Below, piece after piece: positions 1,010-63,865 of a DNA stretch of 64,000 nucleotides. The notes under the pieces were generated by a model that searched no databases, was not told the DNA's origin, and was given only the letters and a program-made list of their open reading frames with translations. The position numbers were made by a program, and so were the translations under genes. Numbering within the stretch: position 1 is the first letter of the stretch; the number at the start of each line of letters is the position of its first letter. The DNA is from Rhizaria sp. SCN 62-66 (Eukaryota): assembly GCA_001724265.1 (NCBI GenBank), contig MEDY01000124.1, forward strand, positions 1-64,000. Reading direction: 5' to 3'.

Positions 1010-4000
1010 ATGTCGATGAACTACGTCGACTCCCGCGCGCCCGTCCTGCACCCCGACTCCATGTCGCACGCAGCCTGGGCACATCTCGACGGATCCGCGG
1101 CCCCCGCACCCCGTCTCGCCACCGCGGCGACCGCGCCCACGCAGCCGCAGCGCATGCAAGCCAAGGCCTACAACTCCAACCAGGTCGGCGCCACGTTCAA
1201 CATGAACCACAACATTCCCGCCGACAACGCGCGTCAGCGCTACTTTGTCTCGCTCCCCGTCGCTACCGCGCCGCCCGGGTTTGTCTCCGTGATGCCTCCG
1301 CAGCCCGCCGGCTCCGCCGTGTACCCCGGCGCAGTGGTCGCGACCCAGCCCCTCCGCCCAGTCCCCATCTCCGCCGCCGCCGGTGCTGTCGCGCCCCACC
1401 TTGTCGCGCCCCACGCACAGCAGTACGTGCAGGGCGGCTTTGCGGCGGCACACTGCCTCGCCCCGCCTGCACCGATGCCGATGCCCGTGTTCACACAGCA
1501 GCACCCGCCTCAACAGCAGTTCGCGCCACCCGTGTTCATGCATCTGCAGCAGCCTGTCGCGCCGTGCCGCTACGTCAACGCCCCTGGCCCAGCGCCCCGC
1601 GTCGCGTCTGGCGCTTGCGCTGGAGTGGCTGTTAACGGCGTGCGCGTGCCGACCCCGGTGCAGGCGGCGCAGCTGGCGGCGCTCACGGCCGAGGTTTCCC
1701 GCCTCCAGGCCCTCGTTACCGCCCGCGACTCCCAGCCACTCTCTCACGTCCCGACTCAGTCGCAGCCTCACGGCGCTGAGCCCCAGTACGCGCCCGCGCC
1801 CGTGGTTGATAACGCCGCCGCCGCTGCCGCCACCGTCGCCGCGTCTGCCGCGCCTGCGGTTGTTAAGGCCGACCCCGCGGCCGAGCGCGCCGCCAAGAAC
1901 GCCGAAGCGGTGCGCCGCGGTCGCGCACGCGCACGCGAGGCGCTGCGGCAGCTGGCGGAGCGCCTGGCCGCTGAGCCGCAGACGACGTCCGAGGCCGCGA
2001 ACCAGGCCGTGCTGCGCGCAACCACTACGGGCACCAAGCGGCTCACGCGCGCGGAGCAAGATGCCTGCGTCGGCAGGCTCTACAAGGTGCCCGCCGCCGC
2101 TGCTGCGACTAAAGGCAAGGGCGCGGGCGGCAATGCCGTGCGCGCGGCGTCTGCGTCGCGGCCCGCCACCGCGTGCGCCGCCGCCAGCCCCCGCACTGCT
2201 GCTCACAGCCACGCCCGCGCGGGGAACGCAGGCGGTGTGGTTCGCGCTGGCACTGCGCGCGCCGCCTCCGCCACCCGTGCCACCGCTGCAAACACCAACG
2301 CCGGCGTGAAGCGCGCTGCAACCGCGAAGTCGTCCAACGCCGGCGCTGCTGCTGCTGCGCCTGCTGGTCCTGTGTGGGCCGCGGGCGGCGGCGGCGGCGT
2401 GCTCGCGCCCGGCGTCGGCGTGCTGTGCGCCGACGCGCTCGCCCGCTTTGCTCTCAGTAGCAGCGACACCACCCACAGCAATAGCAATGCTGTCGTTGTC
2501 AATGCTGCTGCGCCGTACGAATACGCCACACAGGACGCTTTCCACGCCGTCCCCGTGCACCACAACAATGCCGCTGCGGCTGGGTATGTCGCCGTAAGCA
2601 ATGGCAGCGTTGCCAACATTGTTAACGGCGGCGGCGGTGTTCAAGAGAGCCACCAGGGTGCGAGAGCGGCGCCGCGCCCCGGCAGCCCGGGCCAAGTGCG
2701 GTTCAACCCGCTGGTCGAGGTCCGCACTTACGAGCCCGCTTCCCACGGTCACTCCGCTGCGCCTAGTTACGGGCAGGCGGACTACAGCTACAGCGGCGCG
2801 GCAGAGTACTCTGCTGCTGCCCCTGGCGCTGCTGGTGCTGGTGCGGTGTCGCCGCGCGACCTGTACGCCGCCAACGCGCGCCGCCAACACTCTTCGTCGA
2901 GCATGGCCGCGGCGCTCTCACTCCCCGAGCCCGCCGCTCAAGCCCACGGCCACCGCGCCGCCGCTGCGCACGGCCACTCTGCTGCTGCGGCTGTGGCCGT
3001 GGGGGGCGCGGCGATGTCACCTGCGCACGCCTCGCACTCGGCCTCGGCTGCGGCGTACGCGCGCAACAAGCAGCTCGGCTCCGACGCTTCCGCCGTGCGC
3101 GCTGTTCTCTTCCCCCCTGTTGACGTTAACGCCAACAACAGCAACGTCAACTCGCACGGCAACCTTTCGGGCGCGCGCGCTGCTGCGGCGAAGGCTGCCG
3201 CGGCGTCCGCGGCCGCTACCGTCGCGGCCAGCGCCGGCGCGAGCGCCCGCGAGTCTTACCGCGCCCGCAGCGGCAGCTCCGTGGTCTTCGCGGGCGAGGC
3301 CGAGGCGACGGACGCCGACTACGCGCACGCCGCCGCGACCGCGGCCGCGGGCCCCAGTGGCGGCGGCTCCGCCCGCGCGCGCTCCCGCAGCCGCGAGCGC
3401 AGCGCGTACACGAATAACACGAGCATCGCGAGCGCCGACGCCTCCGGCGACGCGTGCGCGGGACTGGGCGCGGAGGCGGCGGCGCTGGCGGCCGCGTTCC
3501 GGGCACGCAACGCGAGCGACTCGTTCCACCTCGCCAACGACAGCGTTACCGTTGCGCCTGACGACACGGTCGGCCGCCCGCGGTCGGCCGCGCGCAGTCC
3601 GCGCCGCGACGTGCAGCCCGTCGCCGCTGCCGCGGCTTGGGGTGATGCGGGGGAGACGCGTCGCGCGGCGGCTGCCATTGCGCAGCGCAACAGCGGCTCC
3701 AGCGGCGTCAGCAACGCGTTCGCCGCGGCTGCTGCGGTGAACGCGGATGCGCGCAACCGCGCCGCGCAGCATGCGCCCGCTTCGGCTGCGGAGGACGGGG
3801 AAATCAACCCTCTGCTAGTCGATTCTGCGAAGATGCAGGCTGATTTTAAGGCCAGGAGCGCGGAGTTGGCTGCTAAGTATTCGCACATTTACGTCCCGAG
3901 CGACGCTGTCCGGGCCGCCAACTTCATCGACGACGGAGGCTGCAACCACTTTGCCGCAGCTGCTGCTCACGGACAGCTTCAGCAGCAGCCGCACCCGCAG

Positions 4001-5947: not shown

Positions 5948-6278
5948 AAGAAACACATCCACGTTCATGCAGAGCTGCAAAGTGTCACAAGTTCAGTGCG
6001 GATATTTTATGACAGATAATGGGTCAAAACAATGTGTATTTCGCCGTGACAAGTTATACGTTTGTTTAGATAGATAGCTAGACTATGTATGGCCACCTCA
6101 CATTCGATCACTTGGAGTGATCACTGTGATTGTTTAAGTAACGGTATTTAGTTAATTCAAATGAGTAAGAGCTCAATTCTTCGCGCTGGCCCATTGTGCG
6201 CGCGTCCAATGAATAAAAATAGTGTCAAAAATAAGCCCACCATGTTTAACATTAATTGGAAACATTGCAACAGAGTTC

Positions 6279-9200
6279 TTACTTGCGCACAAATCCGGCG
6301 TCGGTCCTGAGCAGCAGCCCTTGCCGCTCTAGCGCCTCGAGCGCGGCCGCGGCGACTGCGACGCTGAGCCCGCCGTGCACGATGCCGCGCGCGCGCTCGC
6401 TCAGCTGCGCCGCGGTCAGCGCCCGCGTGCTGCTCGCAAACCCGCGCGCCAGCGCCAGCGCCTCCGCGGTCGGCACCACCTCCGCCGCAGCCGCCGCAGC
6501 TGCAGCCGCAGCGGTCGCAGGAGTCCCGCTGGCGTCGTCGGACATCGCGGTCGCAGAGGCGGCCGCAGAGGCGGAGCCGTCGACGCGGGCGCCCGCTCGG
6601 CCCGCGGCGCCGGCGCCAAGCGCGGCAAGCTTGCGCGCCTCGGCCGCCAGCGCCGCGTCCGCGCCAGCCGCCGCGTCCCCGGAGTCGTCGTCGGCGGCGT
6701 TGTCGAGAGGTGGAAACGCGTCCGCGGTGACGAAGCCGCCGTTGCAAGGGACGAGAACGCCCTGCGTTACCCAGTATCGCAGCGCGCGCAGCGCCGCGGC
6801 GGGTCCCACACACACGGCGCGCGCCACCGCGGCCGCGGTCAGCGGCGCGGGGCCGGCTGCCGCGGCTGCCGCGTCTTCGTCGCCGTCGTTGTCGTTGACC
6901 GCAAAGCAGGACATGACCGCGGCGCAGAGCGGCGAGACGGTGAAGGCGCGCGTCTCCCCGTCGCCGGCCTCGAGCTCCAGCGTCACGCAGCCCACGCGCG
7001 GCGCGAAGACGAGCCGCCGCGACGGCGCGCTGCCCGCCGGACCTGCGGCGGCGGCGGCGGCGGCCAGCGAGGGCGGCGGCACCGCGACGGCGCGCGCCAC
7101 GGCCAGCGCCTGCGTGAGCACCGTGCCGGGCACGCGCAGCCCGCGCAGCGCACCGCTGCTGCTGCCGCTGCTGGCGGAGGCAGAATCCGCGGCGGTGGCG
7201 GCGGGGCGCGCGGTGGAGGTCTCTCCGAGGTTGGCGAGCAGTGGGCGGAACGTGTGCTCACCGAGCCCCATCTTGCGCTGCTTGAGCAGCTGCTGCAGAG
7301 CGGCGTGCTGGCGCTGCTCGCGCGCAAGGAGCTGCTCCTCCGCCGCGGAAACACCGGCGCACGCGCGGCGCCATGACGCCGTGCCGCGCGGGCCAACCAA
7401 CACAGCACCATGCGCCTCACTGGCGTCGTCCTCGTCGTTAGCGTCGTCGTCGTCGTCGTCGTCAGAGAGGCCGGTGGGACAGGCGGGCGCGACGGCGAGC
7501 TTCGCCCACTCCGCGGGCCACGCGGCCGTGGCGCCGACAATCACGGTCACTTCACAGCAGCCCGCGCGGCGCGGCGCCGAGGCCTGCAGCAGGCGGCGCG
7601 CCGAGACCAGCGCCGCGGTGACGGGCGAGTCGGGCGCCAGCGACTGCGCCGCGTCCAGCACGATGTTCTGTGAACGCACAGGAAAAAAAAAGAGAAGATA
7701 AAACATGAGGCGAGAGTGTAAAAATATAATTAAAGACAACACATATAACAAAAATATCTTGTCGTTTTTTAAGATGTTAAGATTAGGCTATTTGAGAACG
7801 TACGTCGAAGGCGAAGATGTTGGGTTCCTTGGTCCTGAAGAGCTCTAGCGCGTCCGCAGCGGCCGCCGCGCGGGGATCCGAGCCGTCGAGCGCGCCGCGC
7901 AGCGCGAGCAGCGCGGCCTCGCCCACCACGGCCGCGGACGCGCCGGCCGCGGCGATCAGCAGCGCCAGCGGCGCGACGCCGCCCGCGCCGCCGGTGTGCG
8001 AGTGCGCGCGGCTCTTGCGACCGTGCGCGTGCGAGGTGGAGACTGCGGGGGCGGGCAGAGAAGGCGGCAGCCAGCGCGCCTGCGGGGCCGGGCCCGAGGC
8101 GTCATCCTCGCCGTCGCTGTCGGGCGGCGCCCAGTCAGAGCCGCCGCCACTGTTCGCACTCGCGTTCACACGCACGCTCGCAGCGGCACTTAAAGCAGCG
8201 CGGACGCTTTTCTCTTTACTCTTACCCTTGCTCGGTGTGCTCGTGTACGCGCCTGCGCCAGCGTCTGCCTCTGCATCAGGGTGAGTTTGACTGGGCGAAA
8301 CGTACTCGGATAGAGCTGGCACAGACGCGAGCTCAGCGCGCTGCCGCTCGGTCAGCGCGCCCGTCGCGGCGGCCGCGAGCCAGCCGGCGCGCGCGCGGCG
8401 CGGCACCGCGAGCCCGCCAGCCCCGACCGCCGCGGCGGGCGCGAGCAGCGACAGCGGCAGCCCGGGCGTGTGCGCGGGCGCTAGGAAGGCCGCCGCGAGC
8501 AGCCGCGCGGGCTCGGCGCCGCGCGTGCGCAGGTGCGACGCCGCGGCAACCAGCAGGGCCGCGGTGGCGGGACCTACAGTCATTGCGGTGTTCGGCGACG
8601 CATGCGCACTGGGTCCATCGCCATTGCTGTCGAACGAGGCACCGTGCACCCATGCGACGTCATCGCTCGCGCTGAACTCGATATCGTGAACACTGTTCAA
8701 CGAGTCAGAGGTAGAGCTTGCATCCGCACTGGAGGAGTTGAAGCAGCCTAACCCAGAGAACGCGCGCGACGACAGCGGCGGCGCGTCCCAGCCCTTGGGA
8801 TCGGCCGCCGCGGCCGCCTCCGCGGCCTCGAGCGCGGGGACGATGTGGAAGAGCGCGAGCAGCAGCCGGAGCACCGAGCCCGTGGCCGTGGCCGCGTGCA
8901 GCACCGCGCGCGCCGCTCCCGCCGACACTGCGTGCGACACTCGCAGCGGCGACTGAGACTCTGCCGCGCCGTCCGCCGCGGCCGCAGCGGGGCCGCGCTG
9001 CTCGGCGGCGACGGCGGCGGCGGCCACGCCCACGGCGGCCACAGCGGCGAGGTCCCCGACTGCGGCCGCGGCCGCCGCGGCGGGGCCGCCCAGTCCGAGC
9101 GCGATGTCGACGGTCGCGGCGACGAGGGACCGGGAGAGCGCGGTGCATGCGGCGCGGGCGGCGGCGCGGGCGGCGGCGGGCGCGGCGTCGCGAGGCAGCG

Positions 9201-10152
9201 CGGGTGCGAGCGCGGCGACGGCGCAGCGCAGGCGGAACGAGAGCCCCGGGAGGGCGGAGCCCGCGATTGCGCCGGAGAGCAGCGCGGCGGCGGCGGCGGA
9301 TGCGGCGTCGGCGGCGGCTGCGGAGAGCGCGCGCGCGGCGGCGGCGGCAAGCGGGGCCGCGGCGCCCAGCGCGGAGAGCTGGAGACAGGCGCGGCGCCAC
9401 GGGGCGAGGGCGGGGGCAGCGCCGGAGAGCGCGCCGTCCGTGGTGACGAGGACTGCGCGCGCGGCGGCGGCGGCGAGAAGGCCCTCGAGCACGGCCGCGA
9501 GCGGCGGCGCGGGAGCCGGCAGCAGCGCGGACGCAACGTGGGCCTGCGCGCGCGCGCGGAGCCACTCGTAGCGCGACGCCACGGCTACGGTCACGGAAGC
9601 TGCGGAGAACACGTTAGAAGCGGCTGCGTTGCTAACAGACGACGTGAGGGCACTGGCAAGCTCCACAGCGTACGACGTCGCTGCCAGCTCTTCTGGGGTA
9701 TCTGCTGTGTTGCTCGCCAACAGCGCGGAGCGGCCGTGGGCCGCATGCGCGACTGCGAGGTCGAGGACGGCGGCGACGGCGAGCCAGGCCCGCGCGGCGG
9801 GCGACAGATACAGCGCGTCCGTGGCGGCGGCGGCGGCGGCGCAGGTCGAGTCGCGGGCAAACTGCTGCAGCTGCGCCGCGGTAAGCGTCTGCATGGGTGC
9901 GGAGGAGAGCACGGCGTACTGCAGCGCGGGGCGCGCGAGGTGCTGGGTGAGGGCGGCGACGATGGAGGACTGCCAACGAGCCTGCCACTCGTCGCGCAGC
10001 GCGGAGACAAGCTCGGCGCCCAAGAAAGGCGAGATAAGACCTGCGAAGTCACCAACCGATGGGACTGACTCTGAAGATGCCGAGAGTGCATCTGAATGTG
10101 CAAGGAACAAGTCCCATGCTGCACCGAGGTCTGGCTCGGGCAGGCAGGACAT
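6279..10152 (-). CDS. APC2: Divergent anaphase-promoting complex subunit 2 (cullin-like), ~1245 aa; exons 10152-7804 and 7667-6279
   Basis: Ordered APC2-like motifs: VLHAATATGSVLRLL (cf. LLHPG.. region), HLRTRG, WLPPSLPA (cf. WxPDP), LELFRTK, IVGATAAWP (cf. ILSxxFWP), RRLVFAPRVGCVTLELE..RAFTVSPLCAAVMSCF, ALRYWVTQGVL. A phase-0 intron joins ORFs 7783..10185 and 6279..7751. Stop TAA. Confidence 0.72.
7668..7803 (-). other. Spliceosomal intron (136 nt, phase 0) in APC2
   Basis: GAC|GTACGT ... TTCACAG|AAC, AT-rich; restores the frame (FAFD|NIVLD). Confidence 0.85.
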
Positions 10153-10681
10153 GCTATTTGCGCAGAGAGGAACCCGGGTATGCACGGAGAGAGATATGAA
10201 CGGGTATATGAGCGCCTACGAAGGAATAATTTGAAAAACAAAATGTCACCCCACGCAGACATTTAAATTCACCAGGAACTTTCCTATTCACAGACATTTT
10301 CTCGTGTTAGCCTTGTGTTAAATTGATGTCCTCGTTCAAATTTGGATCCCACAGTCTTCGAGGCCGAGCTGGTCTGCTGCGGAGGCGCAGCAACAAAGCA
10401 GCACTTTGTTGCTGCACAGTGCCAGAGGTACTTCGCTAAAACAGCCTGTACACTTGAAGTGTACCGTAAATAAGAATGATTTTGTGATGTCATATGTCAA
10501 CACGCATTATTGCTAATGGATTCAAGTGGAATGTTCCGTGCAACGAATGTTACACCTGGATGCCGTCTCACCTTACACTGACTTGAACATCGCTCCGCAC
10601 AGAACCTTATCTCGAGCTTTCCTTGCTATACTTGCACTGGCGTTGCAGTTCCGTAGCGCAACGTCCGTGGCTTAGGCAAGG

Positions 10682-27360: not shown

Positions 27361-27402
27361 GAGGACTGGGTTGTGAGTCAAAAGTGATTACGTTCTGTTG
27401 AA

Positions 27403-29840: not shown

Positions 29841-32315
<2,475 letters not shown>

Positions 32316-47361: not shown

Positions 47362-47726
47362 CGAGGACTGGATTGAAGAGTTGGAACGCGGGTGGAAATA
47401 TGCACATGTAACAAAGTGCTGTGAGCGTGTATTAAAACAAAAATATAAGATGATAGCTATTCTGCCCAAACAAAGTGACACCCGCCCAAGAGTACGTCTT
47501 GAAGACGACATAAACTTGCATATCAAATAGCCCAAGATACGTCTCACGTGGTGAGGGCCGAGACTCTTCGAGATCATGAAACGCAGCTGAGAATCCGTTA
47601 CGTAATGCCGCCACTCCAAATGACCGTTACTGTAAAAATCACCAGCTATCCTAAAGACACAGCTCACTTATTTGCTTGCATTGTAAATTATCATTGAATC
47701 TCACCCAATATATCCACAGAAAACCC

Positions 47727-52391: not shown

Positions 52392-52884
52392 GCATGGCAG
52401 CCAGCTCATCAGATGCACGTTTGCGTGTCTTCGTTTAACATGCGAGCTGATGTTTGATGTCGTGTCATAAGCTCGCTTTGTGCGTATTTGAGAAAATGCT
52501 GATTGGATCGTTACATTAGATTGCTTCTTGTTGTAATTTGCTCTGGATTAGGTGTGTTTGCCTGAGTTTTAAATCGTTCCATGAGTGTATTGCATTGCTC
52601 GAGTTAACTGCTTGAAACAAGACCACCGGCAAGGCCTCTGGCCCTGCTGTACACAGAATTGAATACATACGTCAGTATATCTATCATCAAAATATCTATA
52701 TAATTAGCGAAATACTATTGATCCGTTCAAATAGTCACAATGAAAAAACCTTATCAAGGCTAGTTGTCTAGTTGTGAAACAGAAGCGTAAAGTCGACGTA
52801 AACGCATTCACAGCATAAGTGCCCACCGCCACAGCAACCGGGGACTACAGCTACTACATACTGCGGTAACTCCACGCGCCCCAC

Positions 52885-53904
52885 TCAGTGCGCCTTGCCG
52901 GCGCCGCTCTGCGTGAGCGCGGTGAGCTGCCGCTGCAGCAGGCGGTAGATGGGTAAGTAGACTGACCCGCCGAGCATGATATGCGCGCCACGCGTCGTCA
53001 TGCCCGTGAACCAGAACCGCATGCCGCGCTCGGCGCGGATCGCGCTCAGCGCGTGCAGCACGCCGCGGTACTTAGGCGCGGGCGCGCCGGGCAGGAGCCG
53101 CGACATGGACTGCGTCTGGATGATGGTCTTGGCCACGTCGAGCGGCTGCGTCAGCACGGTCGTGGTCGCGCCCGACAACGCACCCGCGAGCATCGACACG
53201 TGCGCAGAGTGCGAGCGGCCCTCCTTGCGCATCGCCTGGTCGCGCGCGAAGTAGGCCGTGCCGAAGCCCGCGACGGAGCCCGTGGTGAGGAGGTGCGTGT
53301 AGAAGTCGTTGCCGGACATCATGAGGCACACTACGGGCAGGTCACGCGCTAGGTTCGCCCACAGGCCCTGCCAGAGGCCGCCGACGCCGTCGCGCGAGAC
53401 AAGCGTGCGCAGCGCGTCGAAGGATGAGCGCGAGCGCGGCACGCCCTGGAGCGAGCCCTCAACCTGCATGCGCTCCTTGACCACCTCGAACGGGCACTTG
53501 ACGAACGTCACCAGCGCGCGCGAGCCGGCGAACAGCGCCGCGTACTTGGCGGCGTCCAGAGTGGACGCGTTCTTGTGCGCGGCAACGTCGCGGAACATCT
53601 CGTAGGTCGTCCACTGCACGGCCGCCAGCGGGGACTGCATGAGCCGCGGGCCGAGGCCGCGGTAGAAGGCGCGGACGCCTTCGCCGTAGATGCCGCGCAC
53701 GGCGTCCGAGACGTTGCGGTACTGCTTGGCACCGACGACGGCGCCGGAGAACTGCTGGCGCACCATGACGGTGACGACGGGATGCCAGATGGCGCCCGTG
53801 ATCATGGTCGTCACGAACGATGCCATGCCGCCCTTGGTGATGGCTGTCTTGCCACGCTCCATCAGCGTCGGCTGCGTCTTGGAAGCAGGGGCCGCGACAG
53901 ACAT
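52885..53904 (-). CDS. Mitochondrial carrier family (SLC25) protein, 339 aa
   Basis: Three repeats: HPVVTVMVRQQ..EGVRAFYRG, CPFEVVKERMQ..DGVGGLWQG, QPLDVAKTIIQ..RGMRFWFTG. Stop TGA. Substrate not assignable by eye. Confidence 0.92.
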   Translation of the reverse strand: MSVAAPASKTQPTLMERGKTAITKGGMASFVTTMITGAIWHPVVTVMVRQQFSGAVVGAKQYRNVSDAVRGIYGEGVRAFYRGLGPRLMQSPLAAVQWTTYEMFRDVAAHKNASTLDAAKYAALFAGSRALVTFVKCPFEVVKERMQVEGSLQGVPRSRSSFDALRTLVSRDGVGGLWQGLWANLARDLPVVCLMMSGNDFYTHLLTTGSVAGFGTAYFARDQAMRKEGRSHSAHVSMLAGALSGATTTVLTQPLDVAKTIIQTQSMSRLLPGAPAPKYRGVLHALSAIRAERGMRFWFTGMTTRGAHIMLGGSVYLPIYRLLQRQLTALTQSGAGKAH

Positions 53905-54370
53905 CAGTGCTGCAAGAAATTAAATAATACGGGTCATTTGAAGGATATGAGAGTTCGTATGCACAGTTCAATTTTGACACCAACGATGAAACAATTGCGC
54001 TGTGGATAATCAAATCAGCCCAACTTTCGAGGGGGTGTGGCGTGATCTCTCGCTCGGCCACAGTCTGTCTTAAGAGCCCGACGGCACTGCGGACATTGAT
54101 CATGTGCACACGTATAAGGCCGTCGTTAAGAATAACGTCTGCATACTATATTATACTGATGCGCATGTGCTTATTTTTATAATTATACTTTCTACAGACC
54201 TATTTATAACTCACACCACTTACTCGCTTATCCTTCCGCACCCCACCATCAAAGCTTTACAACACCCACTTCGGCTGGCCCATTGCAACGGCACTCTTGG
54301 GTTCTCTCTTCAAGACACAGCAAAGGTACACCATCACCTAATCACCGCTCTTGCGGAGCGACTTGTCAGG

Positions 54371-57300
54371 ATGCAACACCGCGCCCGCCACCTCGCTGGC
54401 GCCCTGCGCGCCGCAGTGCCCGCGGCGCCCGCACTGCCGTCCTCCGCGCTCCAATCCCCTGCCCTCGCGTCAACGGCGGGCCAGTCCCGCGCCATGTCGT
54501 CGTCGTCGTCGTCGTCGTTCTCGTCCTCGTCCTCCGGCCGCGGCGCGTCCCCCCGCAAGGGCTCTTCCGCGCGCATGCCCCCCACGTCGTCGGCGGACAT
54601 CGCGCAGCGCCAGTTCCGCCGCCCCGAGACCAGCGTGCTCGGCCGCTCCGGGGGCTCACTCAACAGCACCACCCCGGCCGAGCCCGAGGGCGCGGGCGAG
54701 AGCGAGGAAGAGGCGGACCCGGCGCTGGCGCTCGTGCAGCGCTACCTGGCGGCGGGCGACGTCGCGGGCGCCGAGGCCGCGCTGGCGATGGCCGTGCGCT
54801 CCACCGAGGACCGCCTGGGGCTCGACTACGTGGGTGGCGCGGGTACTCCGGCGACAGACGCTAAAGCCAACACAAACGTCCATCACTCATTGCAACAACA
54901 GCAGAAACAGACCGCTAAGCCCGCCAAACCTGCCACAACGAAGCTTTCTCAAACTGCTGCTGGCGCTAACGCTGCGAAGCCGCCTGTGACGCTGACGTCG
55001 CTGATGCAGGCTGCGCAGCGCGCGGAGCGCCGCGGGGGCGCGCTGGCAGCGCCGGTGCCGACGCAGGCTCAGCTGCGCGCGGAGCACGCGGCGCAAGGTG
55101 AGCGGCTTGCGCGCGGGGAGGACTTCGCTAGGGAGCAGACGCTGCACTTCGCTGCGCTCGGCCAACGCGCGGCCATGGGCACGGAGGAGGCGCTGCGGGC
55201 CGCCGCGCGCCGCAGGGCGGGGCTGCCCGCCGAGGAGGACGTCGACGACGACATTGACGACGATGTCGACGACGAGGTTGACTATGACGAGAACGATGAC
55301 GTCGAGGACGGCGCGTACGACAGTGATGGCCGCGCCGGCTCCGGCTCCGGCTACGACTCGGCCCTTGACTCCGGCGCCGACGCCGAGCTGGGCTCCGGCG
55401 TGGACTCGGCGGCCGAAAGCGGCGGGCTTATGAGCGGCTATGACTCGGACGCCCGCGCCGCCGACTCCGAAGTGCTGACGCGCATCGCAGAGGCCGGGCG
55501 CGCAGGCCGGCTTGGCAAGGACGCTGAGTGGTTCGACCCACGCCGGCCCGACGCGCTTGCGCGCAAGAGGGAGAAGGACGCCGCCGCCACCGCTAATACC
55601 AGTGCCAGTGCGGCCCGCCGCGGCGAGGTTGAGGAGGACGACGATGTGGACGCGGATGCGAGTGGGCGCGAGAGCTGGTTTGACTCTGCGATGCAGGCAG
55701 CCTCAGGCACTGAGGGCGAGCAACAGCGCAGCCAGCAGCAGCAGCGTGAGCAAAGCGACGCTGAGTGGCAGGCCCACGCGCGCGCCGCGATGTGGCACAA
55801 GGCCGGCAGCCCACCATCACAATCACCGGCTCACCCTGCGCAGTTATCGCGGCCGGAACAGGCCGCCGCCGCCGTGGCCGCGACCGCGCGCGCCACGGGC
55901 ACCACGGTCACGGCCCCGCCCGGCGAGCCCGCCTTCGCGTGGCCGCCGCCGCGCCGCTCGCTCGGCCTCTCCCGCCTTATGGCCTCTGCGCGCCCCCTGC
56001 CGTCCACCGCCTCAGCTGTCAGTGGCGCCGAAGGCACCGGCGCTAGCGGTGCTGGGTCGATGTCGGGCGTGGCGGCGCTGCGCCAGCTGCCCACCGCGGC
56101 CGCCCGGGCGGGAGTGCGCGGGGCCACAGCCGCGCTCGAGGCCGCGATGGCCGACATGGCCGCCGAGCTGGCCGCCGCGCGCACCGCGGCTGCCGCGGCC
56201 GCCGCTGAGGCCGCGGCGACGGGCGCCCCGGCGGCGGCGCCGTCGACCGCGGCCATCGCGCGCGCGCACGCCGTGGCGGCGGCGCTGACCGAGCTGTGCG
56301 CAGGGCTCGTCGCTGACGGCGCCGCGGACTCCGGGCTGCCGCCGCCGCGCCGCGCCGCCGCCGCCGCCGCGGGGCTGTCGCTGGACCCCGCGGAGCTGGT
56401 GCGCGAGTTCCAGGCCCACCGCGGCGCGCGCCTGGAGCACGAGGTCGCGCTTGGCGCAGACACCGACGGCGACAACGGCGGCGAGAGTGTGGCCGCAACT
56501 GTGGAGGCGGTGCGGGCCCCGGCGCTGTCGGCGCCCGCGCTGCCGTTCGAGCCCTTCGCGCCGTCGTTCGCGCGCAGCGACTCGGCGGCCGCACTCACTG
56601 CTTCGGCCGTGGCGGCGGCGGCTCCCACTCCGCGCGCCGCGCTGCTGGCCATGTCACCCGCCGCGGCCGCGTCGGCGCTGCGCGACGACCCGGCCTTGCT
56701 GACGATGCTGCGCATGCTCGACACCGCGGCTGCGAACGAGGCCCTCGGCGCCGCCAAGGGCAAGGGTGCGCGGAGCGACAAGGACGCGGCCGCGGCGGCG
56801 GGGACGCAGGTGGCCGTGCTGCGCGCGCTGCGGTCCGTGCTGCCGGCGACGTTCTCGCGCGTAGTGGCGACGATGGGCGCGCGCGGCGGGCGCGCGATGG
56901 CGCGCATGATGCAGGCCTCCGAGTCCGCGGCGGCGGCGGCGGCGCGGCGCGGGGCTGCGGCGCCCGACGCCGCGGCGGCCGCCAAAGAGGGCGCGCGCGC
57001 GACGGCCGCGCTGGCCAGCGAGCTGCGCAACATCGCCGCCAGCGAGGGCGCGACTGGCGCGCAGTTGCCGCCGGAGGTCGCGCGCGCGCTCGGCGTCGCC
57101 ACACCCGACGCCGAGGTCTCCCCCTCGCTGACTGGGGATTCGCAGGCGCATGCGCAGACACTTGAGTCAGACGAGGCCGCGGCGGTGCGGCGCGTGGCGG
57201 CGCTCATGGCGACGGACCGCGACGGCATCGTGGTGGATCTGGCCACAGAAGAACGCCGGCTCGCGCTCATGGCCGTCGAAGGGCTCTCACCGGCGGCCGC

Positions 57301-60300
57301 GGCCGCGCGGGCCATCAACGACGTCCACGGCGCCGACTCCGCCTCTGCTGCAGACGCCAGTGCGGACGGGGGCGAGGTCGTCGACGAGTACGGCGTGACC
57401 AAGGAGCAGCGGCAGCTGCAGGCGGCGCTGGTACAGTATGAGAACATGCTGCGTCGGCGCGTGATGCTGCTTGAGGCGGAGAAGGAGGCGCAGGCCACTG
57501 GCGCGCCGTTGATCGACGACCTGCGCACCCTGGCGTCGCGCATCGCGGCCGTGCGCGCCGATGTCAAGGACCGCCCGGAAGACTCGTCGCTGCTGCGGCG
57601 CGCCAACGAGCTGTACAAGCAGCTGGCCTTCGTGCAGCAAACGAAGCGGACGAACCCGACGCTCTACTACTGGCGCAAGTTTCTGGCCAACATCCCGCGG
57701 TCCGCGCGCGCTGACGCCATGGCGGCGCACGAGCTGCCGAACAACCCCATCGCGTGGGCCATCGAGACGGGCGAGCAGGAGGCCGCGCGCCGCGCCGCGC
57801 TCGCCGCGGGAGTGCCCGACGAGGAGTCGGCCGCGCGTCAGGACGAGACTGACAAGCCGCGGCTGACCCCGGAGATCGTCAAAGACGCGCTCACGCGGCT
57901 TGTGCGCCTGCGCCGCGACACCGCCGCGCTCGAGGCGCGCATCGAGCGCTCCGTGGCCGCGGGCGACGCCGCCGCGAAGCTGGCGAAGCGCGAGGGCCGG
58001 CCGCCCGCGCGCGCGCAGCGCGAGTCCGGCGGCACAAGCGCGGCCGAGGTAGAGCTCACGGAACACATGCGGTTCCTGTGGTCGCTGCGCGCTGACTGCG
58101 AGCTGGCGACGGCGGCGATCGAGCGCGACACGCGCGCCGAGCAGCGCGCGCTGCGGATGCGCGAGGTGCAGCGCGAGCTCAAACTTCTTGCCGGCTCGCA
58201 GGTCACGGATGCCGAGCGGCGCGTGGACGAGCTGCAAGAGCTCACGCGCACTGCGATGCTGGGCCGCAAGGCGCTGCGGTTCAACGTGACCGAGCTGGCC
58301 GAGGAGCGTGACGAGGCCGCCATGCACGGCGGGCACGTCGAGGCCCTCGTCGCGCCCAGCAAGTTCCGCCAGCGCGCCAACAAGACCGTCGCCGCGGGCG
58401 CCGCGGGGGCCACGGTCGCGTTCGTCGACCCGCTTCTCGCGCTCGCGCTGGCCGGGGATGATCCCGCTGCCGCTGCCGCCGCCACGGCCGGGCAGGCCGA
58501 CGCGTTCGGCTCCACGGCAGGCCGCGCGATGCCAGGCTCGGTTCAGGAGGCGCTGCAGCTGCAGGCGCGCGCGGTGCTGGCGTCTCCGACCGCCGCGGCC
58601 GCGTCCGCCGAGACTGCGGCGGCCGCCGCCGCCGCGGCGTCTGCGCTGCCGCGGTCCGAGGTCGCGCACCTCAAAGCGCAGGAGGCGCTGGCGCGCGCCG
58701 CCGAGGCAGAGGCGCGGCGCACAGTCATCACTGCGGCCGCGCAGGAGCACATCCTGCGGGCCGCGCAGCAGGAGCAGCAGGCGGGCGCGCCGACCACGGC
58801 TGCGCGCGCGAAGCTGACGCTGCGCGAGGTCGCGCCCGCGGCCGCGCGGCTGCTGTTCGGGCGCGTCGTTGGCGCGCACGGTGCGCGCGTGCTCGTGGAG
58901 CAGGTGGGCACGCGCGCCTACGCCAAGCACGCCATGTACTACGCGGGCACGCCCGTCGAACGCCTGCTGCGCGCTGTGGCGCCGCGCGCCGAGGACGAGG
59001 GCGAGGAGGCCGCCGCCGCCGCGGAGGCCGTGGCGCGCGCGCTCGACCTGCCCGGCGCCACCGCTGCGGCGCGGAATGCCGACAACGACGGCGAGATGGC
59101 CGCTGCCGATGCAGTGCTTGGCAATCGCCTTAAGACCTCCCAGCCCACTAATGACGCTGATGCCGAGGCTGATGCTGTCGCAGAGGCTCTGGAGCAGGGC
59201 GCCAGCGCCGGTGCAGTCAAGGCGGGCCGCCGCTGGGAGGCCGCACAGCGCCGGAACAACAACAACATCAAGTCACAGACTGCGGACGCCGAAAATGACG
59301 AGGACGTCGACGATGACAACGACGAAGAGCTCGACACCGACGCCGACAGCGCGACCGAGAGCGCTGTTTCTACTTACAAAGCGGGCGCGCGTCCGCTGTG
59401 GCAGTGCACCAAGTCGCGGCACATGCAGCTGCTGTGTGGCGACTATGTGCTCTTCGACCCGCACGCCGCGCGCGCGTGGTCCCAGTCGGCCGCGACCACG
59501 GCGGCCGCGGTCACCGCGCTGGGCGCTGCCGCCGACGGCGTCGTTAAGGTCGTCTTCAAGCGGCTCAACGAGCTCAAGCGCGGACTGGCCGTCAAGAAGC
59601 GCGGCACAGTGCTCTCGCAGCCAGCGTCAAGCATGGCGGCCAACGCGGACCACGTCGTGGTCTTGTGCGCGGCCGAGGGGCAGCCGCCGCTGTCGCCGTT
59701 CTTGCTCGACCGCTTCATCGCCATCGGCCAGCAGGCCAACGTGCCTGTGACGATTGTGTACAACAAGGTCGACCTGCTGGACACCGTCGCGGCGGCGGCG
59801 GAGGACTTCGAGCGCGAGCAGGCCCGTGCGCGGCTGCTGCGCGAGAAGAAGGTCAAGAACCACAAGTTGCGCCGCCAGATGCAGCGCGAAGACGCCGATG
59901 CCGACGTCGCTGTTGAGGATGACGCTCAATTGGAGAACGACGGCGAGGAAGAGGAGGAGTGGGACGAGGAGCAGTGGGAGGCGGCCGAGGCCGAGGACGC
60001 AGCGCAGCGCCGGCTCGCTCGTTGGGTGCGCAAGCGCGGCAAAGAGAGCACCAACGGGCGCCGCACGGCGTACTTGCCCGCCGAGGTGGACGCGCTGCTC
60101 GCGGCATACGAACAGCTCGGCCACCGCGTGATCCGCACGTCGGCGACGACGGGGCAGGGCGTGGACGAGCTGCGCGGCGTGCTGGACCGGTTCCACACGT
60201 CGCTGCTGCTGGGGCCCTCGGGCGCGGGCAAGAGCTCGCTGCTGAACCTGCTGCTGCCCGACACGCAGCTGCGCGTGAACCGGCTGACCGTGTCGGGCCA

Positions 60301-63300
60301 GGGCCAGCACACGACCACGGCGGCGAACCTGTACCGCCTGCCGTCGGGCGCCGCCATCGTCGACACGCCCGGCTCGCAGGGCTTCCTCCCCGACCTGCTC
60401 AATGCAGGCATGCTCGGCGTCCCCGGCGGGGCCGCGGGTGGCGAGGCCGCGGCCAGCACGCTGCAGCCCGGCGCGCCCGCCACCGCAGGCTCCGTGTCCA
60501 TGGCGGGTCCTGCGAGCTCGGCGCTAGTCGACGCGCAGGCGCTCGTGGCCTCAGTGGCCGGTTTGGGCAGGCTCTTCCCGGAGATCTCCCGCGCGAGCGC
60601 CTTCTGCCGCCTGGGCAACAAGTGTACGCACGTGCGCGAACCGGGCTGCGCGGTGAAGGAGCTCGTTGGCGTCGGCGCGGACCACAAGGCCGTGACGGTG
60701 TTCGACCTCTACCGCATGGACAAGCAGAGCAACGTATACGTGGCCAAGTTCTGGCAGGACCTCCGGTCGGGCGCGCTGCGGCCGCTGGCGTCGCTGGCGT
60801 CGCCGGACCCCGTGCTGGTGTTCGCCGCCAAGTGGTACCGCGACTGGGACGCCGGGCTGGCCTCGTCGCCGGCGCACAAGCCGCTCGACACGCACTCGCC
60901 CGCCGAGCTCAAGGTCATGGGTCAGCTTGCCGCCGCGACCGAGGCCGGCCGCAAGCTGGGCTCCGCGGCCAACCCCGGCTCGGACAAGCGCGGCGCGCGC
61001 GGCGACGTGGCCCCGCCGCGCGCGGCCGCCGCGATGCGCACCGCGCCCGTCGAGGCGGACTCGGAGCAGGCCATGGCGCTGGCGGGCGTCCCGCTGGGCG
61101 CTAGCGCCGAGGACGCGATGTTCGCCAAGGACGACGAGAAGATCCTCACGGAGCAGATGTCGCCGTCCCCGCAGCGCTTCGCGCAGGCCGCCGCGGCCGA
61201 CGCCGCCGACGCGGCCGCTGCGGCTGGCAAGCCGGATCCCTACGAGGGCTCGAGTCTGCGCAGCCGGCTGCTGGACGAGTCGGTGCTGGCGGCGCAGCGC
61301 GGGGACGCGCCGGGCGCCGACGCGCAGGACAAGGCGGCGCCCCCGCTGGGCGTGACGTCGCCAGAAGTGGTGCGCGAGCTGCTCGAGCGGCGCGCGCGGC
61401 GCGTGGCGCGCGATGTCGCCGAGATGGAGTTCGACCGCGACCTGTCCGCCGCGGAGGCCGCGCTGGACCGCATCGAGCGCGCCGAGGAGCGCAAGAAGCG
61501 CGCCGCGGTGCGGTCTACGGCCGGCATCCGCGGCGATCGCGATATCGAGGCCGATGAGGCTCTGGCCGAGGCCGAGGCCGAGGCCGAGGCGGAGGCGGAG
61601 GCTGCGGCGAAGTCAAAGGCACACGGTGGCGAGGTCGAGGCGTCCGAGGAGCAGCCGCCCAAGTCGTCGATGGCGCGCCTGTTCGCGGACATGGGCCGCG
61701 CGCCGTCGACGCTGGTGCGCATGCCGGGCATTCCCGCCAAGTACTACGCGCAGCAGCGCGAGGCGCAGGCCGCCGTTGACATCATGAACTCGAACCTCAA
61801 CGGCGATCATGATGACGCAGACGGTGGCGATTCCCTGTCGCCGAGCGGCGGCCGGCGCATCACCCCGGAGGCCACTGCCGAGGTCGCGTACGCGGCGCGC
61901 CGCAGCCCGGCTGCCGCCGCCGCCGCGGGCGTGTCCGTCGACCGCATGCGACTCGCGGACCGCGCCGCCGACGGCCGCGTCGTCGTGCGGCCCGTGCACA
62001 GCAAGTTCGACCGCCTGCTTTGGGAGAAGCTCTGGGCCGCGGCCGCCAGCGGCGCCAAGCCCGGCAAGCAGGCCGGCAGCAACACTATAGCCGTGCTCGC
62101 CCCCGCCAACACCTCCCCGACACGCGACGCCGACGCGGCCGCCGACTCCGCCGCGTCTGCCGGCAGCCGCGGCGGCGCGCTGGACGCGGCAGCGGAGCTC
62201 GGCTTTAGCGCCACGGGCCGCATGATGCGCGCGATGGACCGCGCGCGCCAACGCGCCTCCGAGGCCGGCGGCGACGGCGCGGACGCCGGCGTCGTCGTCG
62301 CGGGGGTGAGCCTCGACGCCTATCTGGCGGGCAAGCGCGCCGCCGACGGCGAGACGGTCGTGCTGCCATCACTCGCCGCCCTCGCGCGCGCGGGCTACGC
62401 CACCGCCGCGGACACCGCCGCAGACGGCGGCGCGGCCAAGCCCGGCAAGGGCAAGAGCACGCCGCTGTCGGCGCTGCCCATCGCGGACCCGGACGACGAC
62501 GACTTCGACGCCAACTTCACTGCCGGCGGCCGCGGGCGCACCAAGCGCGAGCGCCGCCTGGCCGCGCAGCAGGCGCAGCGCGACCAGCGCATGCGCGCGC
62601 TGCGCGCAGAGCTCGACCGCGTAGCCGCTGACGTCGAGGCCCAGCCTGCGCCCGTGACTCCCGCGGCTGCTGCGGCTGAGCCGGTGTCCGCGCCGCGCGC
62701 GGTGACCAAGACGTTCACGCCCTCGGCGACCGCTGCGCTGCGCGCGACGGTCGCTGGCGTTGTCCCGCTGCGCCCGCCAACTGCACTGCCAACCACGCAC
62801 GCGCTGCCCGTCACGCTGCACGCAGCGCTGCCGGCACTGGGCGGGCTCAAGCTGCCGACGGCGATGCGCCTGCCCTCGGCGGCTGCACTCCCCGTCGTCG
62901 TTGCCGCCGCCGCGCCGCCGAAGCCCACTGCGGGCGCTGCGGCGGTGAAGGTCGGCGAGTTCGAGGTGGAGGAGAGCGAGACGGAAATGCACGACGAGTC
63001 CCCCTTCTGGCGGATGCCGCGCGTCGCGCCGCTCCAACCCCACCTCAAGCGCGCCCCCGCCCCCGCCGCGGTCGCCACGGAGATCGGGCGCGAGAGCGAG
63101 CGCGATATGAGTGGCGTGCACATCTTCGACTACACGTCAGAGTCTGCGACGAACGCGGACGAGGACGCTGCGGCGCAGAGTAAGGCCGAGCTGAGCATGT
63201 TGAGCGGCCAGCGCGTGCCCGCCGGCGCAGCGCGCGGCCTGATGATTGCGCCCTCGCGCTACGAGAGCTACGTGCGGTTGCGCGGGATCCTCGCGGCGAC

Positions 63301-63865
63301 GACGGAGGCCCTGCGCACGCGCGGCCGGTCCAGCGCTAGCAAGAAGTTAGCCCGCGTGGAGCTGGAGACGGCGGCGGAGCGCGAGAAGGCCGAGATGAAG
63401 AAGTACAAGAAGGTTGCGCTCGCGCGCGCGCTGCGGCACGATAGCCGTGCGTTTGACGCGCTGGTCAAGCAGCAGGCCGCCAAGGAAAACGAGCTGCTGG
63501 GCGAGGGCTTCGACGCGACCGAGACGGTGCGCGCGCGCCTCGCAGTGACGCTGCACAACAGCGGCCAGGCTGTCGGCGCGAGCGCGAAGCAGGTCCGCGA
63601 CAGCGCCAAGAAGGGCCGCAGCGACAAGGTGATGACCGCGGAGCTCCGCACGAGCAGCAGCGGCAACGGCGGCGGCAGCGGCGGCGGCGATGGGGAGAGC
63701 TTCGGCATGGACGGCCACGATGACGCGGAGAAGGTGATGCGCGCGCACACGTACGAGGGCTCGGCTGAGGCCAACGAGGCGCGGGTGAAGCTTGGCGAGC
63801 GCGTGACGGGCATGGTCGGGCAGCGCGCGAATGCGACTGTTAAGTCGCTGCGTGAGAGCAAGTAA
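54371..63865 (+). CDS. rsgA: Giant RsgA/YjeQ-family circularly permuted GTPase with mitochondrial-type presequence, ~3164 aa
   Basis: OB-fold remnants (GRVVG at ~58859, CGDYVLF, GVVKVVFKRLNELKR), AANADHVVV, LDRFI, G4 NKVD (59762), G5 SATTGQG, G1 GPSGAGKS (60212), G2 GQHTTT, G3 DTPG (60362), Zn site CRLGNKCTHVREPGC (60605), terminal helix RYESY (63257). Stop TAA. Confidence 0.85.
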   Translation: MQHRARHLAGALRAAVPAAPALPSSALQSPALASTAGQSRAMSSSSSSSFSSSSSGRGASPRKGSSARMPPTSSADIAQRQFRRPETSVLGRSGGSLNSTTPAEPEGAGESEEEADPALALVQRYLAAGDVAGAEAALAMAVRSTEDRLGLDYVGGAGTPATDAKANTNVHHSLQQQQKQTAKPAKPATTKLSQTAAGANAAKPPVTLTSLMQAAQRAERRGGALAAPVPTQAQLRAEHAAQGERLARGEDFAREQTLHFAALGQRAAMGTEEALRAAARRRAGLPAEEDVDDDIDDDVDDEVDYDENDDVEDGAYDSDGRAGSGSGYDSALDSGADAELGSGVDSAAESGGLMSGYDSDARAADSEVLTRIAEAGRAGRLGKDAEWFDPRRPDALARKREKDAAATANTSASAARRGEVEEDDDVDADASGRESWFDSAMQAASGTEGEQQRSQQQQREQSDAEWQAHARAAMWHKAGSPPSQSPAHPAQLSRPEQAAAAVAATARATGTTVTAPPGEPAFAWPPPRRSLGLSRLMASARPLPSTASAVSGAEGTGASGAGSMSGVAALRQLPTAAARAGVRGATAALEAAMADMAAELAAARTAAAAAAAEAAATGAPAAAPSTAAIARAHAVAAALTELCAGLVADGAADSGLPPPRRAAAAAAGLSLDPAELVREFQAHRGARLEHEVALGADTDGDNGGESVAATVEAVRAPALSAPALPFEPFAPSFARSDSAAALTASAVAAAAPTPRAALLAMSPAAAASALRDDPALLTMLRMLDTAAANEALGAAKGKGARSDKDAAAAAGTQVAVLRALRSVLPATFSRVVATMGARGGRAMARMMQASESAAAAAARRGAAAPDAAAAAKEGARATAALASELRNIAASEGATGAQLPPEVARALGVATPDAEVSPSLTGDSQAHAQTLESDEAAAVRRVAALMATDRDGIVVDLATEERRLALMAVEGLSPAAAAARAINDVHGADSASAADASADGGEVVDEYGVTKEQRQLQAALVQYENMLRRRVMLLEAEKEAQATGAPLIDDLRTLASRIAAVRADVKDRPEDSSLLRRANELYKQLAFVQQTKRTNPTLYYWRKFLANIPRSARADAMAAHELPNNPIAWAIETGEQEAARRAALAAGVPDEESAARQDETDKPRLTPEIVKDALTRLVRLRRDTAALEARIERSVAAGDAAAKLAKREGRPPARAQRESGGTSAAEVELTEHMRFLWSLRADCELATAAIERDTRAEQRALRMREVQRELKLLAGSQVTDAERRVDELQELTRTAMLGRKALRFNVTELAEERDEAAMHGGHVEALVAPSKFRQRANKTVAAGAAGATVAFVDPLLALALAGDDPAAAAAATAGQADAFGSTAGRAMPGSVQEALQLQARAVLASPTAAAASAETAAAAAAAASALPRSEVAHLKAQEALARAAEAEARRTVITAAAQEHILRAAQQEQQAGAPTTAARAKLTLREVAPAAARLLFGRVVGAHGARVLVEQVGTRAYAKHAMYYAGTPVERLLRAVAPRAEDEGEEAAAAAEAVARALDLPGATAAARNADNDGEMAAADAVLGNRLKTSQPTNDADAEADAVAEALEQGASAGAVKAGRRWEAAQRRNNNNIKSQTADAENDEDVDDDNDEELDTDADSATESAVSTYKAGARPLWQCTKSRHMQLLCGDYVLFDPHAARAWSQSAATTAAAVTALGAAADGVVKVVFKRLNELKRGLAVKKRGTVLSQPASSMAANADHVVVLCAAEGQPPLSPFLLDRFIAIGQQANVPVTIVYNKVDLLDTVAAAAEDFEREQARARLLREKKVKNHKLRRQMQREDADADVAVEDDAQLENDGEEEEEWDEEQWEAAEAEDAAQRRLARWVRKRGKESTNGRRTAYLPAEVDALLAAYEQLGHRVIRTSATTGQGVDELRGVLDRFHTSLLLGPSGAGKSSLLNLLLPDTQLRVNRLTVSGQGQHTTTAANLYRLPSGAAIVDTPGSQGFLPDLLNAGMLGVPGGAAGGEAAASTLQPGAPATAGSVSMAGPASSALVDAQALVASVAGLGRLFPEISRASAFCRLGNKCTHVREPGCAVKELVGVGADHKAVTVFDLYRMDKQSNVYVAKFWQDLRSGALRPLASLASPDPVLVFAAKWYRDWDAGLASSPAHKPLDTHSPAELKVMGQLAAATEAGRKLGSAANPGSDKRGARGDVAPPRAAAAMRTAPVEADSEQAMALAGVPLGASAEDAMFAKDDEKILTEQMSPSPQRFAQAAAADAADAAAAAGKPDPYEGSSLRSRLLDESVLAAQRGDAPGADAQDKAAPPLGVTSPEVVRELLERRARRVARDVAEMEFDRDLSAAEAALDRIERAEERKKRAAVRSTAGIRGDRDIEADEALAEAEAEAEAEAEAAAKSKAHGGEVEASEEQPPKSSMARLFADMGRAPSTLVRMPGIPAKYYAQQREAQAAVDIMNSNLNGDHDDADGGDSLSPSGGRRITPEATAEVAYAARRSPAAAAAAGVSVDRMRLADRAADGRVVVRPVHSKFDRLLWEKLWAAAASGAKPGKQAGSNTIAVLAPANTSPTRDADAAADSAASAGSRGGALDAAAELGFSATGRMMRAMDRARQRASEAGGDGADAGVVVAGVSLDAYLAGKRAADGETVVLPSLAALARAGYATAADTAADGGAAKPGKGKSTPLSALPIADPDDDDFDANFTAGGRGRTKRERRLAAQQAQRDQRMRALRAELDRVAADVEAQPAPVTPAAAAAEPVSAPRAVTKTFTPSATAALRATVAGVVPLRPPTALPTTHALPVTLHAALPALGGLKLPTAMRLPSAAALPVVVAAAAPPKPTAGAAAVKVGEFEVEESETEMHDESPFWRMPRVAPLQPHLKRAPAPAAVATEIGRESERDMSGVHIFDYTSESATNADEDAAAQSKAELSMLSGQRVPAGAARGLMIAPSRYESYVRLRGILAATTEALRTRGRSSASKKLARVELETAAEREKAEMKKYKKVALARALRHDSRAFDALVKQQAAKENELLGEGFDATETVRARLAVTLHNSGQAVGASAKQVRDSAKKGRSDKVMTAELRTSSSGNGGGSGGGDGESFGMDGHDDAEKVMRAHTYEGSAEANEARVKLGERVTGMVGQRANATVKSLRESK

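Follow-up and report, generated by a model that had tools for sequence, protein, structure and literature searches.

Strand alternation of 17 consecutive genes in a 64-kb window of contig MEDY01000124.1 (Rhizaria sp. SCN 62-66)

Seventeen consecutive genes in a stretch of DNA from Rhizaria sp. SCN 62-66 (GenBank assembly GCA_001724265.1, contig MEDY01000124.1, positions 1 to 64,000 of the forward strand; hereafter the window) lie on alternating strands. The gene order is + - + - and so on to +, and all 16 adjacent pairs switch strand. The analysis covered this one 64-kb window, its 17 genes and their 16 neighbour transitions. An original prediction, made from the same DNA, had described the alternation; it was reproduced here with independently built gene models, again with 16 of 16 switches. 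The eight divergent spacer lengths given earlier were all identical on rebuilding, and the earlier convergent range of 321-663 bp matches the rebuilt values. The observed alternation is real and robust. It probably reflects an orientation bias of the lineage that is clearly above the published range and favours spacers with shared promoters or terminators. A stronger version is quite possible, short of probable: a near-deterministic orientation across the genome (switch rate at least 0.8), with a tiling of bidirectional promoters and terminators and almost no tandem genes, in a lineage that reads TAG.

Gene models were built from AT-rich islands by enumeration of splice sites and frames, with checks of the junctions; TAG was allowed within frames. 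The 17 genes rebuilt in this way comprise 29 exons and 12 introns. Each runs from an ATG to a TGA (11 genes) or a TAA (6 genes) and has no internal TAA or TGA. The genes, preceded by a candidate exon at the left edge, are as follows.

55..124, minus strand: candidate first exon of an 18th gene, ATG at 124, open frame to a GT at about 55
1010..5947, plus strand: gene 1, 1645 codons, one exon, 2 in-frame TAG (4799, 4988)
6279..10152, minus strand: gene 2, 1245 codons, 2 exons, intron 7668-7803
10682..17214, plus strand: gene 3, 2088 codons, 3 exons, introns 11177-11322 and 13807-13926
17778..20425, minus strand: gene 4, 825 codons, 2 exons, intron 19159-19328, in-frame TAG 17855
21042..22277, plus strand: gene 5, RING-finger protein, 411 codons, Pfam zf-C3HC4_2 (E 2.3e-10)
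22646..26956, minus strand: gene 6, Nop14, 1436 codons, Pfam Nop14 (E 1.8e-116)
27403..29446, plus strand: gene 7, Rei1/ZNF622-like zinc-finger protein, 2 exons, intron 27474-27777, Pfam zf-C2H2_2 (E 2.5e-22)
29841..32315, minus strand: gene 8, 824 codons, weak coding signal, 6 in-frame TAG, poly-Asp tract
32606..35608, plus strand: gene 9, aspartyl-tRNA synthetase (AspRS) of bacterial/mitochondrial type with long insertions, 1000 codons, Pfam tRNA-synt_2 (E 9.9e-89)
35930..39971, minus strand: gene 10, 1314 codons, 2 exons, intron 39854-39950, 5 in-frame TAG
40343..46468, plus strand: gene 11, 1912 codons, 4 exons, introns 43613-43730, 43827-43952 and 44943-45085
46810..47361, minus strand: gene 12, glyoxalase-domain protein, Pfam Glyoxalase_4 (E 1.5e-29), presequence-like N-terminus, optional 5' mini-exon 47548-47577
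47727..48371, plus strand: gene 13, small conserved protein, 214 codons, G+C at third codon positions (GC3) 0.84
49035..49641, minus strand: gene 14, 132 codons, 2 exons, intron 49293-49500, GC3 0.86
50343..52391, plus strand: gene 15, 643 codons, 2 exons, intron 50781-50897
52885..53904, minus strand: gene 16, mitochondrial carrier, 339 codons, Pfam Mito_carr (E 2.4e-43)
54371..63865, plus strand: gene 17, single open reading frame (ORF) of 3164 codons, Pfam RsgA_GTPase (E 1.5e-35)

For 15 of the 17 genes the strand was assigned on independent evidence. Genes 5, 6, 7, 9, 12, 16 and 17 were oriented by their Pfam family, genes 2, 3, 4, 7, 10, 11, 12, 14 and 15 by the direction of their introns, and gene 13 by its homologues. 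The strand of genes 1 and 8 was taken from the stop-free frame alone. Gene 1 matched no Pfam family; its frame is free of TAA and TGA and scores 0.95-1.21 per codon as coding after each of its TAG codons. All 824 codons of the gene 8 frame are free of TAA and TGA, whereas each of the other five frames contains 10-74. The candidate exon at 124-55 has a coding score of +2.0 over 23 codons, compared with -28 for an open plus-strand frame at 1-120.

Fusing neighbours on the same strand yields alternation automatically, therefore the merges of exons and of TAG-separated pieces must stand on other evidence. For the same reason the claim of the original prediction that the alternation independently supports the gene models was circular, since such fusions always increase alternation. 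The merges stand on evidence of their own and are not artefacts. Each of the 12 introns (97-304 nt, G+C content 0.28-0.50) links two long open frames in phase. Seven of the donors are GTACGT, with GTGCGT twice and GTACGA, GTATGG and GTGAGA once each; the acceptors are CAG (nine), TAG (two) and AAG (one). GTACGT occurs 17 times in the whole window on both strands together, and 7 of the 17 are predicted donors. In nine of the 12 downstream exons the first in-frame ATG comes only after 34-417 codons whose coding score is clearly positive, for example 132 in gene 2, 183 in gene 7, 390 in gene 10 and 101 in gene 15 (exon 2 in each case); those nine exons therefore cannot start translation alone. 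The pieces of the remaining three (gene 11 exon 2, gene 12 and gene 14) are on the same strand whichever reading is taken. In gene 7 a zinc finger is made whole by the splice, its CxxC being encoded in exon 1 and its two His in exon 2. Most at risk is the join across the 340 bp that separate exons 1 and 3 of gene 11, where a GC-rich, in-phase exon of 96 nt lies between two canonical introns; two indels in another sequencing run (43682 and 43865) both fall inside these predicted introns. The pieces joined across TAG share one frame without a gap and keep their coding signal after the TAG (0.26-0.78 per codon in gene 10).

There are 14 in-frame TAG codons, all in genes 1, 4, 8 and 10 (4799 and 4988 on the plus strand; 17855, 29858, 31061, 31610, 31931, 31955, 32312, 36145, 36790, 37735, 38680 and 39823 on the minus strand). 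The other 13 genes, including all seven with a Pfam family, contain none in 13,371 codons. Twelve of the 14 are clearly internal with coding continuing beyond them, and to this extent the earlier reading of TAG as sense stood; the TAG at 13813, which it had included, lies inside the intron donor of gene 3 (GTACGTTAG) and is not a sense codon. The other two, in genes 4 and 8, lie 25 and 5 codons before the TAA or TGA stop, and little coding signal follows them. After TAG 17855 the coding score of gene 4 is 0.12 per codon over 24 codons, and this TAG may be the real stop of the gene. Gene 8 holds six TAG, about as many as non-coding frames do, so that TAG is not avoided there. TAG seems to be an infrequent codon that is taken as sense or read through, with TAA still a stop, that is, a UAG-only change. 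In the part of PMC5304391 drawn on here, UAG-only sense codes are given for Iotanema and the rhizarian exLh, and both UAA and UAG are read as Gln in aphelids. An aphelid code was rejected for the window, in which TAA ends six genes. The in-frame TAG codons are a feature of this contig distinct from the alternation, and arguably a more unusual one.

In all eight minus/plus pairs the two genes are transcribed in diverging directions, with ATG-to-ATG distances of 290-701 bp, under the 1000-bp criterion for head-to-head genes. Barring 5' introns, the start sites of both genes must fall inside these intervals. The 365-bp spacer of genes 12 and 13 has this length because gene 12 is taken to start at the ATG at 47361; the optional upstream mini-exon would reduce it to 149 bp and leave the strands unchanged. 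The 16 spacers, which carry no strand, are listed below with their sequence signals.

5948..6278: convergent spacer, 331 bp, G+C 0.39, ATGTAT at 6085, no coding signal
10153..10681: divergent spacer, 529 bp, ATATGAG at 10206, which is CTCATAT on the strand of gene 2, 54 nt before the ATG
17215..17777: convergent spacer, 563 bp, G+C 0.37, the sole convergent spacer without ATGTAT
20426..21041: divergent spacer, 616 bp
22278..22645: convergent spacer, 368 bp, three ATGTAT (22409, 22413, 22530)
26957..27402: divergent spacer, 446 bp, G+C 0.56
29447..29840: convergent spacer, 394 bp, ATGTAT at 29788
32316..32605: divergent spacer, 290 bp, G+C 0.38
35609..35929: convergent spacer, 321 bp, ATGTAT at 35701
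39972..40342: divergent spacer, 371 bp, opposed CTCATAT about 175 bp apart at 40038 (minus) and 40218 (plus)
46469..46809: convergent spacer, 341 bp, ATGTAT at 46544
47362..47726: divergent spacer, 365 bp
48372..49034: convergent spacer, 663 bp, ATGTAT at 48810 and 48906
49642..50342: divergent spacer, 701 bp
52392..52884: convergent spacer, 493 bp, ATGTAT at 52663
53905..54370: divergent spacer, 466 bp, CTCATAT at 53945, 41 nt before the ATG of gene 16

Hidden genes were sought as the best 30-codon coding score over six frames in 18 non-coding stretches. The best score was at most 7.0 in 16 of the 18, while the median for exons was 30.2 and their 5th percentile 3.9. The two exceptions, 24.2 at 26957-27402 and 13.8 at 49642-50342, lie directly upstream of genes 6 and 14 and on the same strand as these genes, therefore they are unable to break the alternation; the former is the GC-rich part of its spacer. 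No tRNA gene was found in the window, and no Rfam family reached its gathering score. At E<=0.1 there was a single Rfam match, far below threshold and within a coding region. The original prediction had named additional small genes in the spacers as what would speak against the pattern, and none was seen by coding score or by the tRNA and Rfam scans.

The two classes of spacer really differ in make-up, which gives independent support to the strand assignments and to the distinction of 5' from 3' spacers. The window contains 14 copies of ATGTAT where 4.4 are expected, and none of 100 shuffles reached 14. Ten copies are in convergent spacers (seven of the eight have at least one), two in introns, two in coding sequence and none in divergent spacers; two copies form a short palindrome at 22409-22418. 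By its position ATGTAT is a candidate signal for 3'-end formation. ATATGAG occurs seven times against 1.5 expected, and six of the seven are in divergent spacers. Its complement CTCATAT is found on the sense strand 41-125 nt before the ATG of genes 2, 10, 11 and 16 (10206, 40038, 40218, 53945), and further copies of ATATGAG are at 723 and 20658. CTCATAT is, in our judgement, a candidate initiator-like core promoter element. The looser motif CTCAYWY was rejected as a specific initiator, being equally dense outside divergent spacers. GC skew in divergent spacers is mirrored, positive in the left half of eight of eight and negative in the right half of six of eight, therefore the sense strand (the leader) is C-rich on both sides. 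AATAAA and TGTAA showed no consistent placement in the window as poly(A) signals, and the T/A skew in convergent spacers gave no clear mirror pattern.

The chance of 16 switches in 16 is 2^-16, or 1.5e-5, if orientations are independent (switch rate 0.5), the same figure as in the original prediction. For comparison, switch fractions of 22 species were computed from the co-directional, convergent and divergent classes in Table S1 of PMC2871058. In this table the fraction is 0.02 in Leishmania, 0.51 in Encephalitozoon, 0.559 in yeast, 0.632 in Cryptococcus and 0.647 in Monosiga, and the highest found is 0.658, in Cyanidioschyzon merolae. The probability of 16 of 16 is 1.2e-3 at 0.658 and ranges from 1.1e-5 to 1.2e-3 over the published species rates. 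The local switch rate has a 95% lower bound of 0.83, above all 22 species computed (0.02-0.658 in Table S1). The window is far outside the published range of switch rates.

In the literature searched on near-perfect alternation, a paper on Nannochloropsis gaditana (PMC3566019) was the sole close precedent found. According to the parts of that paper used here, most adjacent genes in N. gaditana lie head-to-head at a common 5' locus and tail-to-tail at their 3' ends, and the same preference is seen in other photosynthetic stramenopiles; the authors explain it by bidirectional promoters and a reduction of genome size. The idea is therefore not new; what the window adds is a stronger case from a different organism. 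Like the N. gaditana genome as described there, the window represents a compact nuclear genome with few introns and many spacers below 1 kb (here all 16, at 290-701 bp). Unlike N. gaditana, in which the bias is of moderate strength and no alternating run in the genome is given as longer than 15 genes (a length reached twice), 17 genes alternate here in one 64-kb window; the organism of the window, again unlike N. gaditana, is GC-rich and reads TAG inside genes. A photosynthetic stramenopile was considered, and the named best matches of two proteins were fungi and one green alga, at low identity.

Head-to-head pairs are defined, in the portions of PMC2648788 and PMC2670823 used here, as genes on opposite strands with start sites at most 1 kb apart, and all eight divergent pairs of the window fall within this definition by ATG-to-ATG distance. 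In the human and plant genomes such pairs are, in the source excerpts available, a minority, with about 10% of genes in human. In the window, by contrast, every gene except gene 17 is in a head-to-head pair with a putative shared promoter. Ostreococcus is likewise a very compact eukaryote with short spacers. O. tauri has about 8000 genes. For this species 2288 head-to-head transcript pairs are given in the part of PMC4035068 consulted, which suggests that about 29% of neighbour pairs are head-to-head, near the random 25%; a strong genome-wide bias is thus not supported there. No report of a near-deterministic gene orientation across a genome was found for any eukaryote in the excerpts searched on alternation or in Table S1 of PMC2871058.

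Two other explanations were weighed against an orientation bias of the lineage. The pattern could be a lucky run, that is, a rare long alternating stretch in a genome whose switch rate is ordinary or moderately raised (0.5-0.66). This is a serious alternative, which we judge rather unlikely. At a rate of 0.66 the probability is 1.3e-3 per window, and about 4 runs of such length are expected in a genome of 10,000 genes; moderate bias can give long runs, as the two of 15 genes in N. gaditana show (PMC3566019, in the part used), and the pattern was defined only after it had been seen. However, the probability stays between 1.1e-5 and 1.2e-3 at every species rate computed, the 17 genes (possibly 18) exceed the genome-wide maximum given for N. 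gaditana in that source, and it would be a coincidence for one contig of about 70 kb to carry the longest run of its genome. The alternation could also be an artefact of annotation, in which same-strand neighbours were fused across introns that do not exist or by reading through TAG, or in which the spacers contain overlooked genes, small or non-coding. Merging raises alternation by construction, 12 intron joins and 12 internal TAG joins are needed, contigs of RNA reads gave no direct splice support, and the gap that had to be bridged in gene 11, from exon 1 to exon 3, has the length of a genuine spacer. Against this stand the canonical donor and acceptor signals at 12 of 12 joins, the coding-like codons before any ATG in nine of 12 downstream exons, the in-phase exon, two canonical introns and intronic indels of the gene 11 gap, the single ungapped frame with coding signal kept across TAG, the spacers devoid of coding signal, tRNA and Rfam family, and homologues of gene 13 that are of similar size to it. 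An artefact is thus very improbable.

Several further observations weigh against a lineage-level bias with shared promoters. The evidence comes from a single window with 16 transitions, picked after the pattern was seen, and the long runs expected by chance in a large genome have been given above. Encephalitozoon is very compact and has a switch fraction of only 0.51 (Table S1, PMC2871058), therefore compaction alone is no explanation. Only four of the six ATATGAG copies in divergent spacers point to the nearer gene, which is weak evidence for a promoter, and CTCAYWY is found 2.9 times per kb in divergent spacers, compared with 2.0 in the convergent ones and 3.0 in introns. Short read contigs compared with the predicted introns gave no match among the 15 joints listed, and they yielded no clean GT..AG joint, start site or poly(A) site; the RNA contigs leave parts uncovered, for example around gene 14, and are uninformative there either way. 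The coding signal of gene 8 is low (0.07-0.21 per codon). Perfect alternation depends on the small genes 13 and 14, because a tandem pair results if only one of them is real. Gene 13 has six homologues besides itself (156-256 amino acids, from other sequence clusters, E 6e-32 to 8e-5). Gene 14 has no homology support, no homology search having been made for it, and if it is not real genes 13 and 15 are in tandem; its median coding score is 25.6, and its product has an N-terminus resembling a signal peptide, and a single hydrophobic helix.

In the window, the gene models and their alternation have been demonstrated, as has the difference in make-up between the spacer classes; an orientation bias of the lineage would account for them in the following way. 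The window would be a piece of the compact nuclear genome of an uncultured, GC-rich and intron-poor eukaryote in which gene orientation is strongly non-random and neighbours are almost always on opposite strands. The divergent 5' spacer (290-701 bp) would hold two opposed core promoters, and in the convergent 3' spacer (321-663 bp) two transcripts would end face to face. Given alternation, each AT-rich spacer is one of two kinds, and none need hold both a terminator and a promoter. We infer that the bias may extend across the genome and that divergent spacers may act as bidirectional promoter regions. The arrangement may have been kept because less spacer DNA is needed and because transcription of an upstream gene does not run on into the promoter of a downstream one. 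The organisation around bidirectional promoters and shared terminators proposed in the original prediction fits at the level of the window, where the spacer classes differ in their signals; its circular support for the gene models and its misreading of TAG 13813 did not survive.

The DNA is GC-rich, with a G+C content of 0.54-0.77 in 2-kb windows, and is broken up by 55 short AT-rich islands, 12 of which are introns and the rest intergenic spacers. About 89% of the window is within genes, and the 16 spacers sum to about 7.3 kb of 62.9 kb. The density of introns is low (12 introns in 17 genes). Among 27 translations of long ORFs compared with Pfam, 7 scored above the curated cut-off, 1 gave a sub-threshold match only and 19 had no match. 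Judged by their families, all seven matched proteins are of types typical of eukaryotic nuclear genes. Positions 40001-50000 are present nearly entire in DNA runs from bioreactors and wastewater and partly in a poly(A) metatranscriptome. The habitat statement is limited to bioreactor and wastewater, runs with a small share of matching words being left aside.

The closest relatives of two conserved proteins are environmental sequences with only 35-63% identity, therefore the organism is uncultured. A search with Nop14 gave 9 matches, the nearest at 35% identity, and those that carry a name come from basidiomycetes and one pedinophyte; the named eukaryotic matches of the AspRS are Mucoromycota and one chytrid. 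The AspRS of gene 9 has 1000 amino acids, compared with about 600 in bacteria, and its insertions are common to five environmental proteins at 43-63% identity. The shared insertions point to a clade of uncultured relatives, as far as the proteins themselves indicate. An alignment of six related AspRS searched against metagenome contigs gave 80 loci, all but one with matches of bacterial length; the locus L079 was rejected as DNA of a relative, as it lies on a 7.8-kb contig of 47% G+C, unlike this organism. The C-terminus of gene 17 gave 275 pattern matches in metagenome contigs, none of them confirmed as the same organism or a relative. A search of genome contigs with P0010, the AspRS of a relative, gave 80 loci, all bacterial, and no related DNA; a search of viral contigs with P0002 gave no match.

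Some observations concern single genes. Inside the Gln-rich coding part of gene 1, the minus strand at 4623-4890 gave the sub-threshold Rfam match isrG, a bacterial small RNA, at 36 bits against a gathering score of 100, and this match is almost certainly an artefact of composition. In gene 8 a (TCA)n repeat of 27.7 copies at 30334-30416 encodes the poly-Asp tract on the minus strand; the gene may be evolving fast or decaying. In gene 10 the T of the minus-strand TAG at 37735 is G in the contigs of four out of four other runs, giving GAG (Glu), which is a TAG/GAG polymorphism between populations. The TAG codons at 36790, 37735 and 38680 of the same gene are spaced by exactly 945 nt (315 codons) twice. 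A tandem repeat behind this spacing was searched for and none was found; the spacing may be a coincidence. A search for relatives of gene 10 across its TAG codons gave only the ORFs of the window itself.

In gene 11, contig depth at 44839-45505 was 89-1828 in four runs, against single or low double digits in most bins; this segment is a low-complexity GC-rich repeat matched by many unrelated contigs. The family of gene 13 has no Pfam domain; the protein has a poorly predicted fold, with a predicted local distance difference test (pLDDT) value of 0.41 in the Protein Atlas, and an internal repeat of a Gly-Tyr-Gly...His...Phe/Tyr motif. Protein Atlas searches with genes 13 and 15 returned no usable match (template-modelling (TM) score at most 0.27; feature score 0.76). 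The RsgA-type GTPase domain (roughly residues 2004-2102 when the ORF is translated from 54074) is the sole recognisable part of gene 17, and gene 17 is an unusually large host for such a domain.

Alternation, the GTACGT donor and TAG read-through would be useful priors for gene calling on metagenomic eukaryotic contigs. Prokaryotic gene callers fragment these genes, and gene 10 is present in the protein collection as ORFs of 294 and 165 amino acids. If the bias holds across the genome, it would be the most ordered pattern of gene orientation known in a eukaryote and a test case for why tandem neighbours persist in other compact genomes. It would also allow a test of read-through interference, shared nucleosome-free promoters and transcription-driven supercoiling in gene order, and of whether the sharing of spacers is a route to genome compaction.

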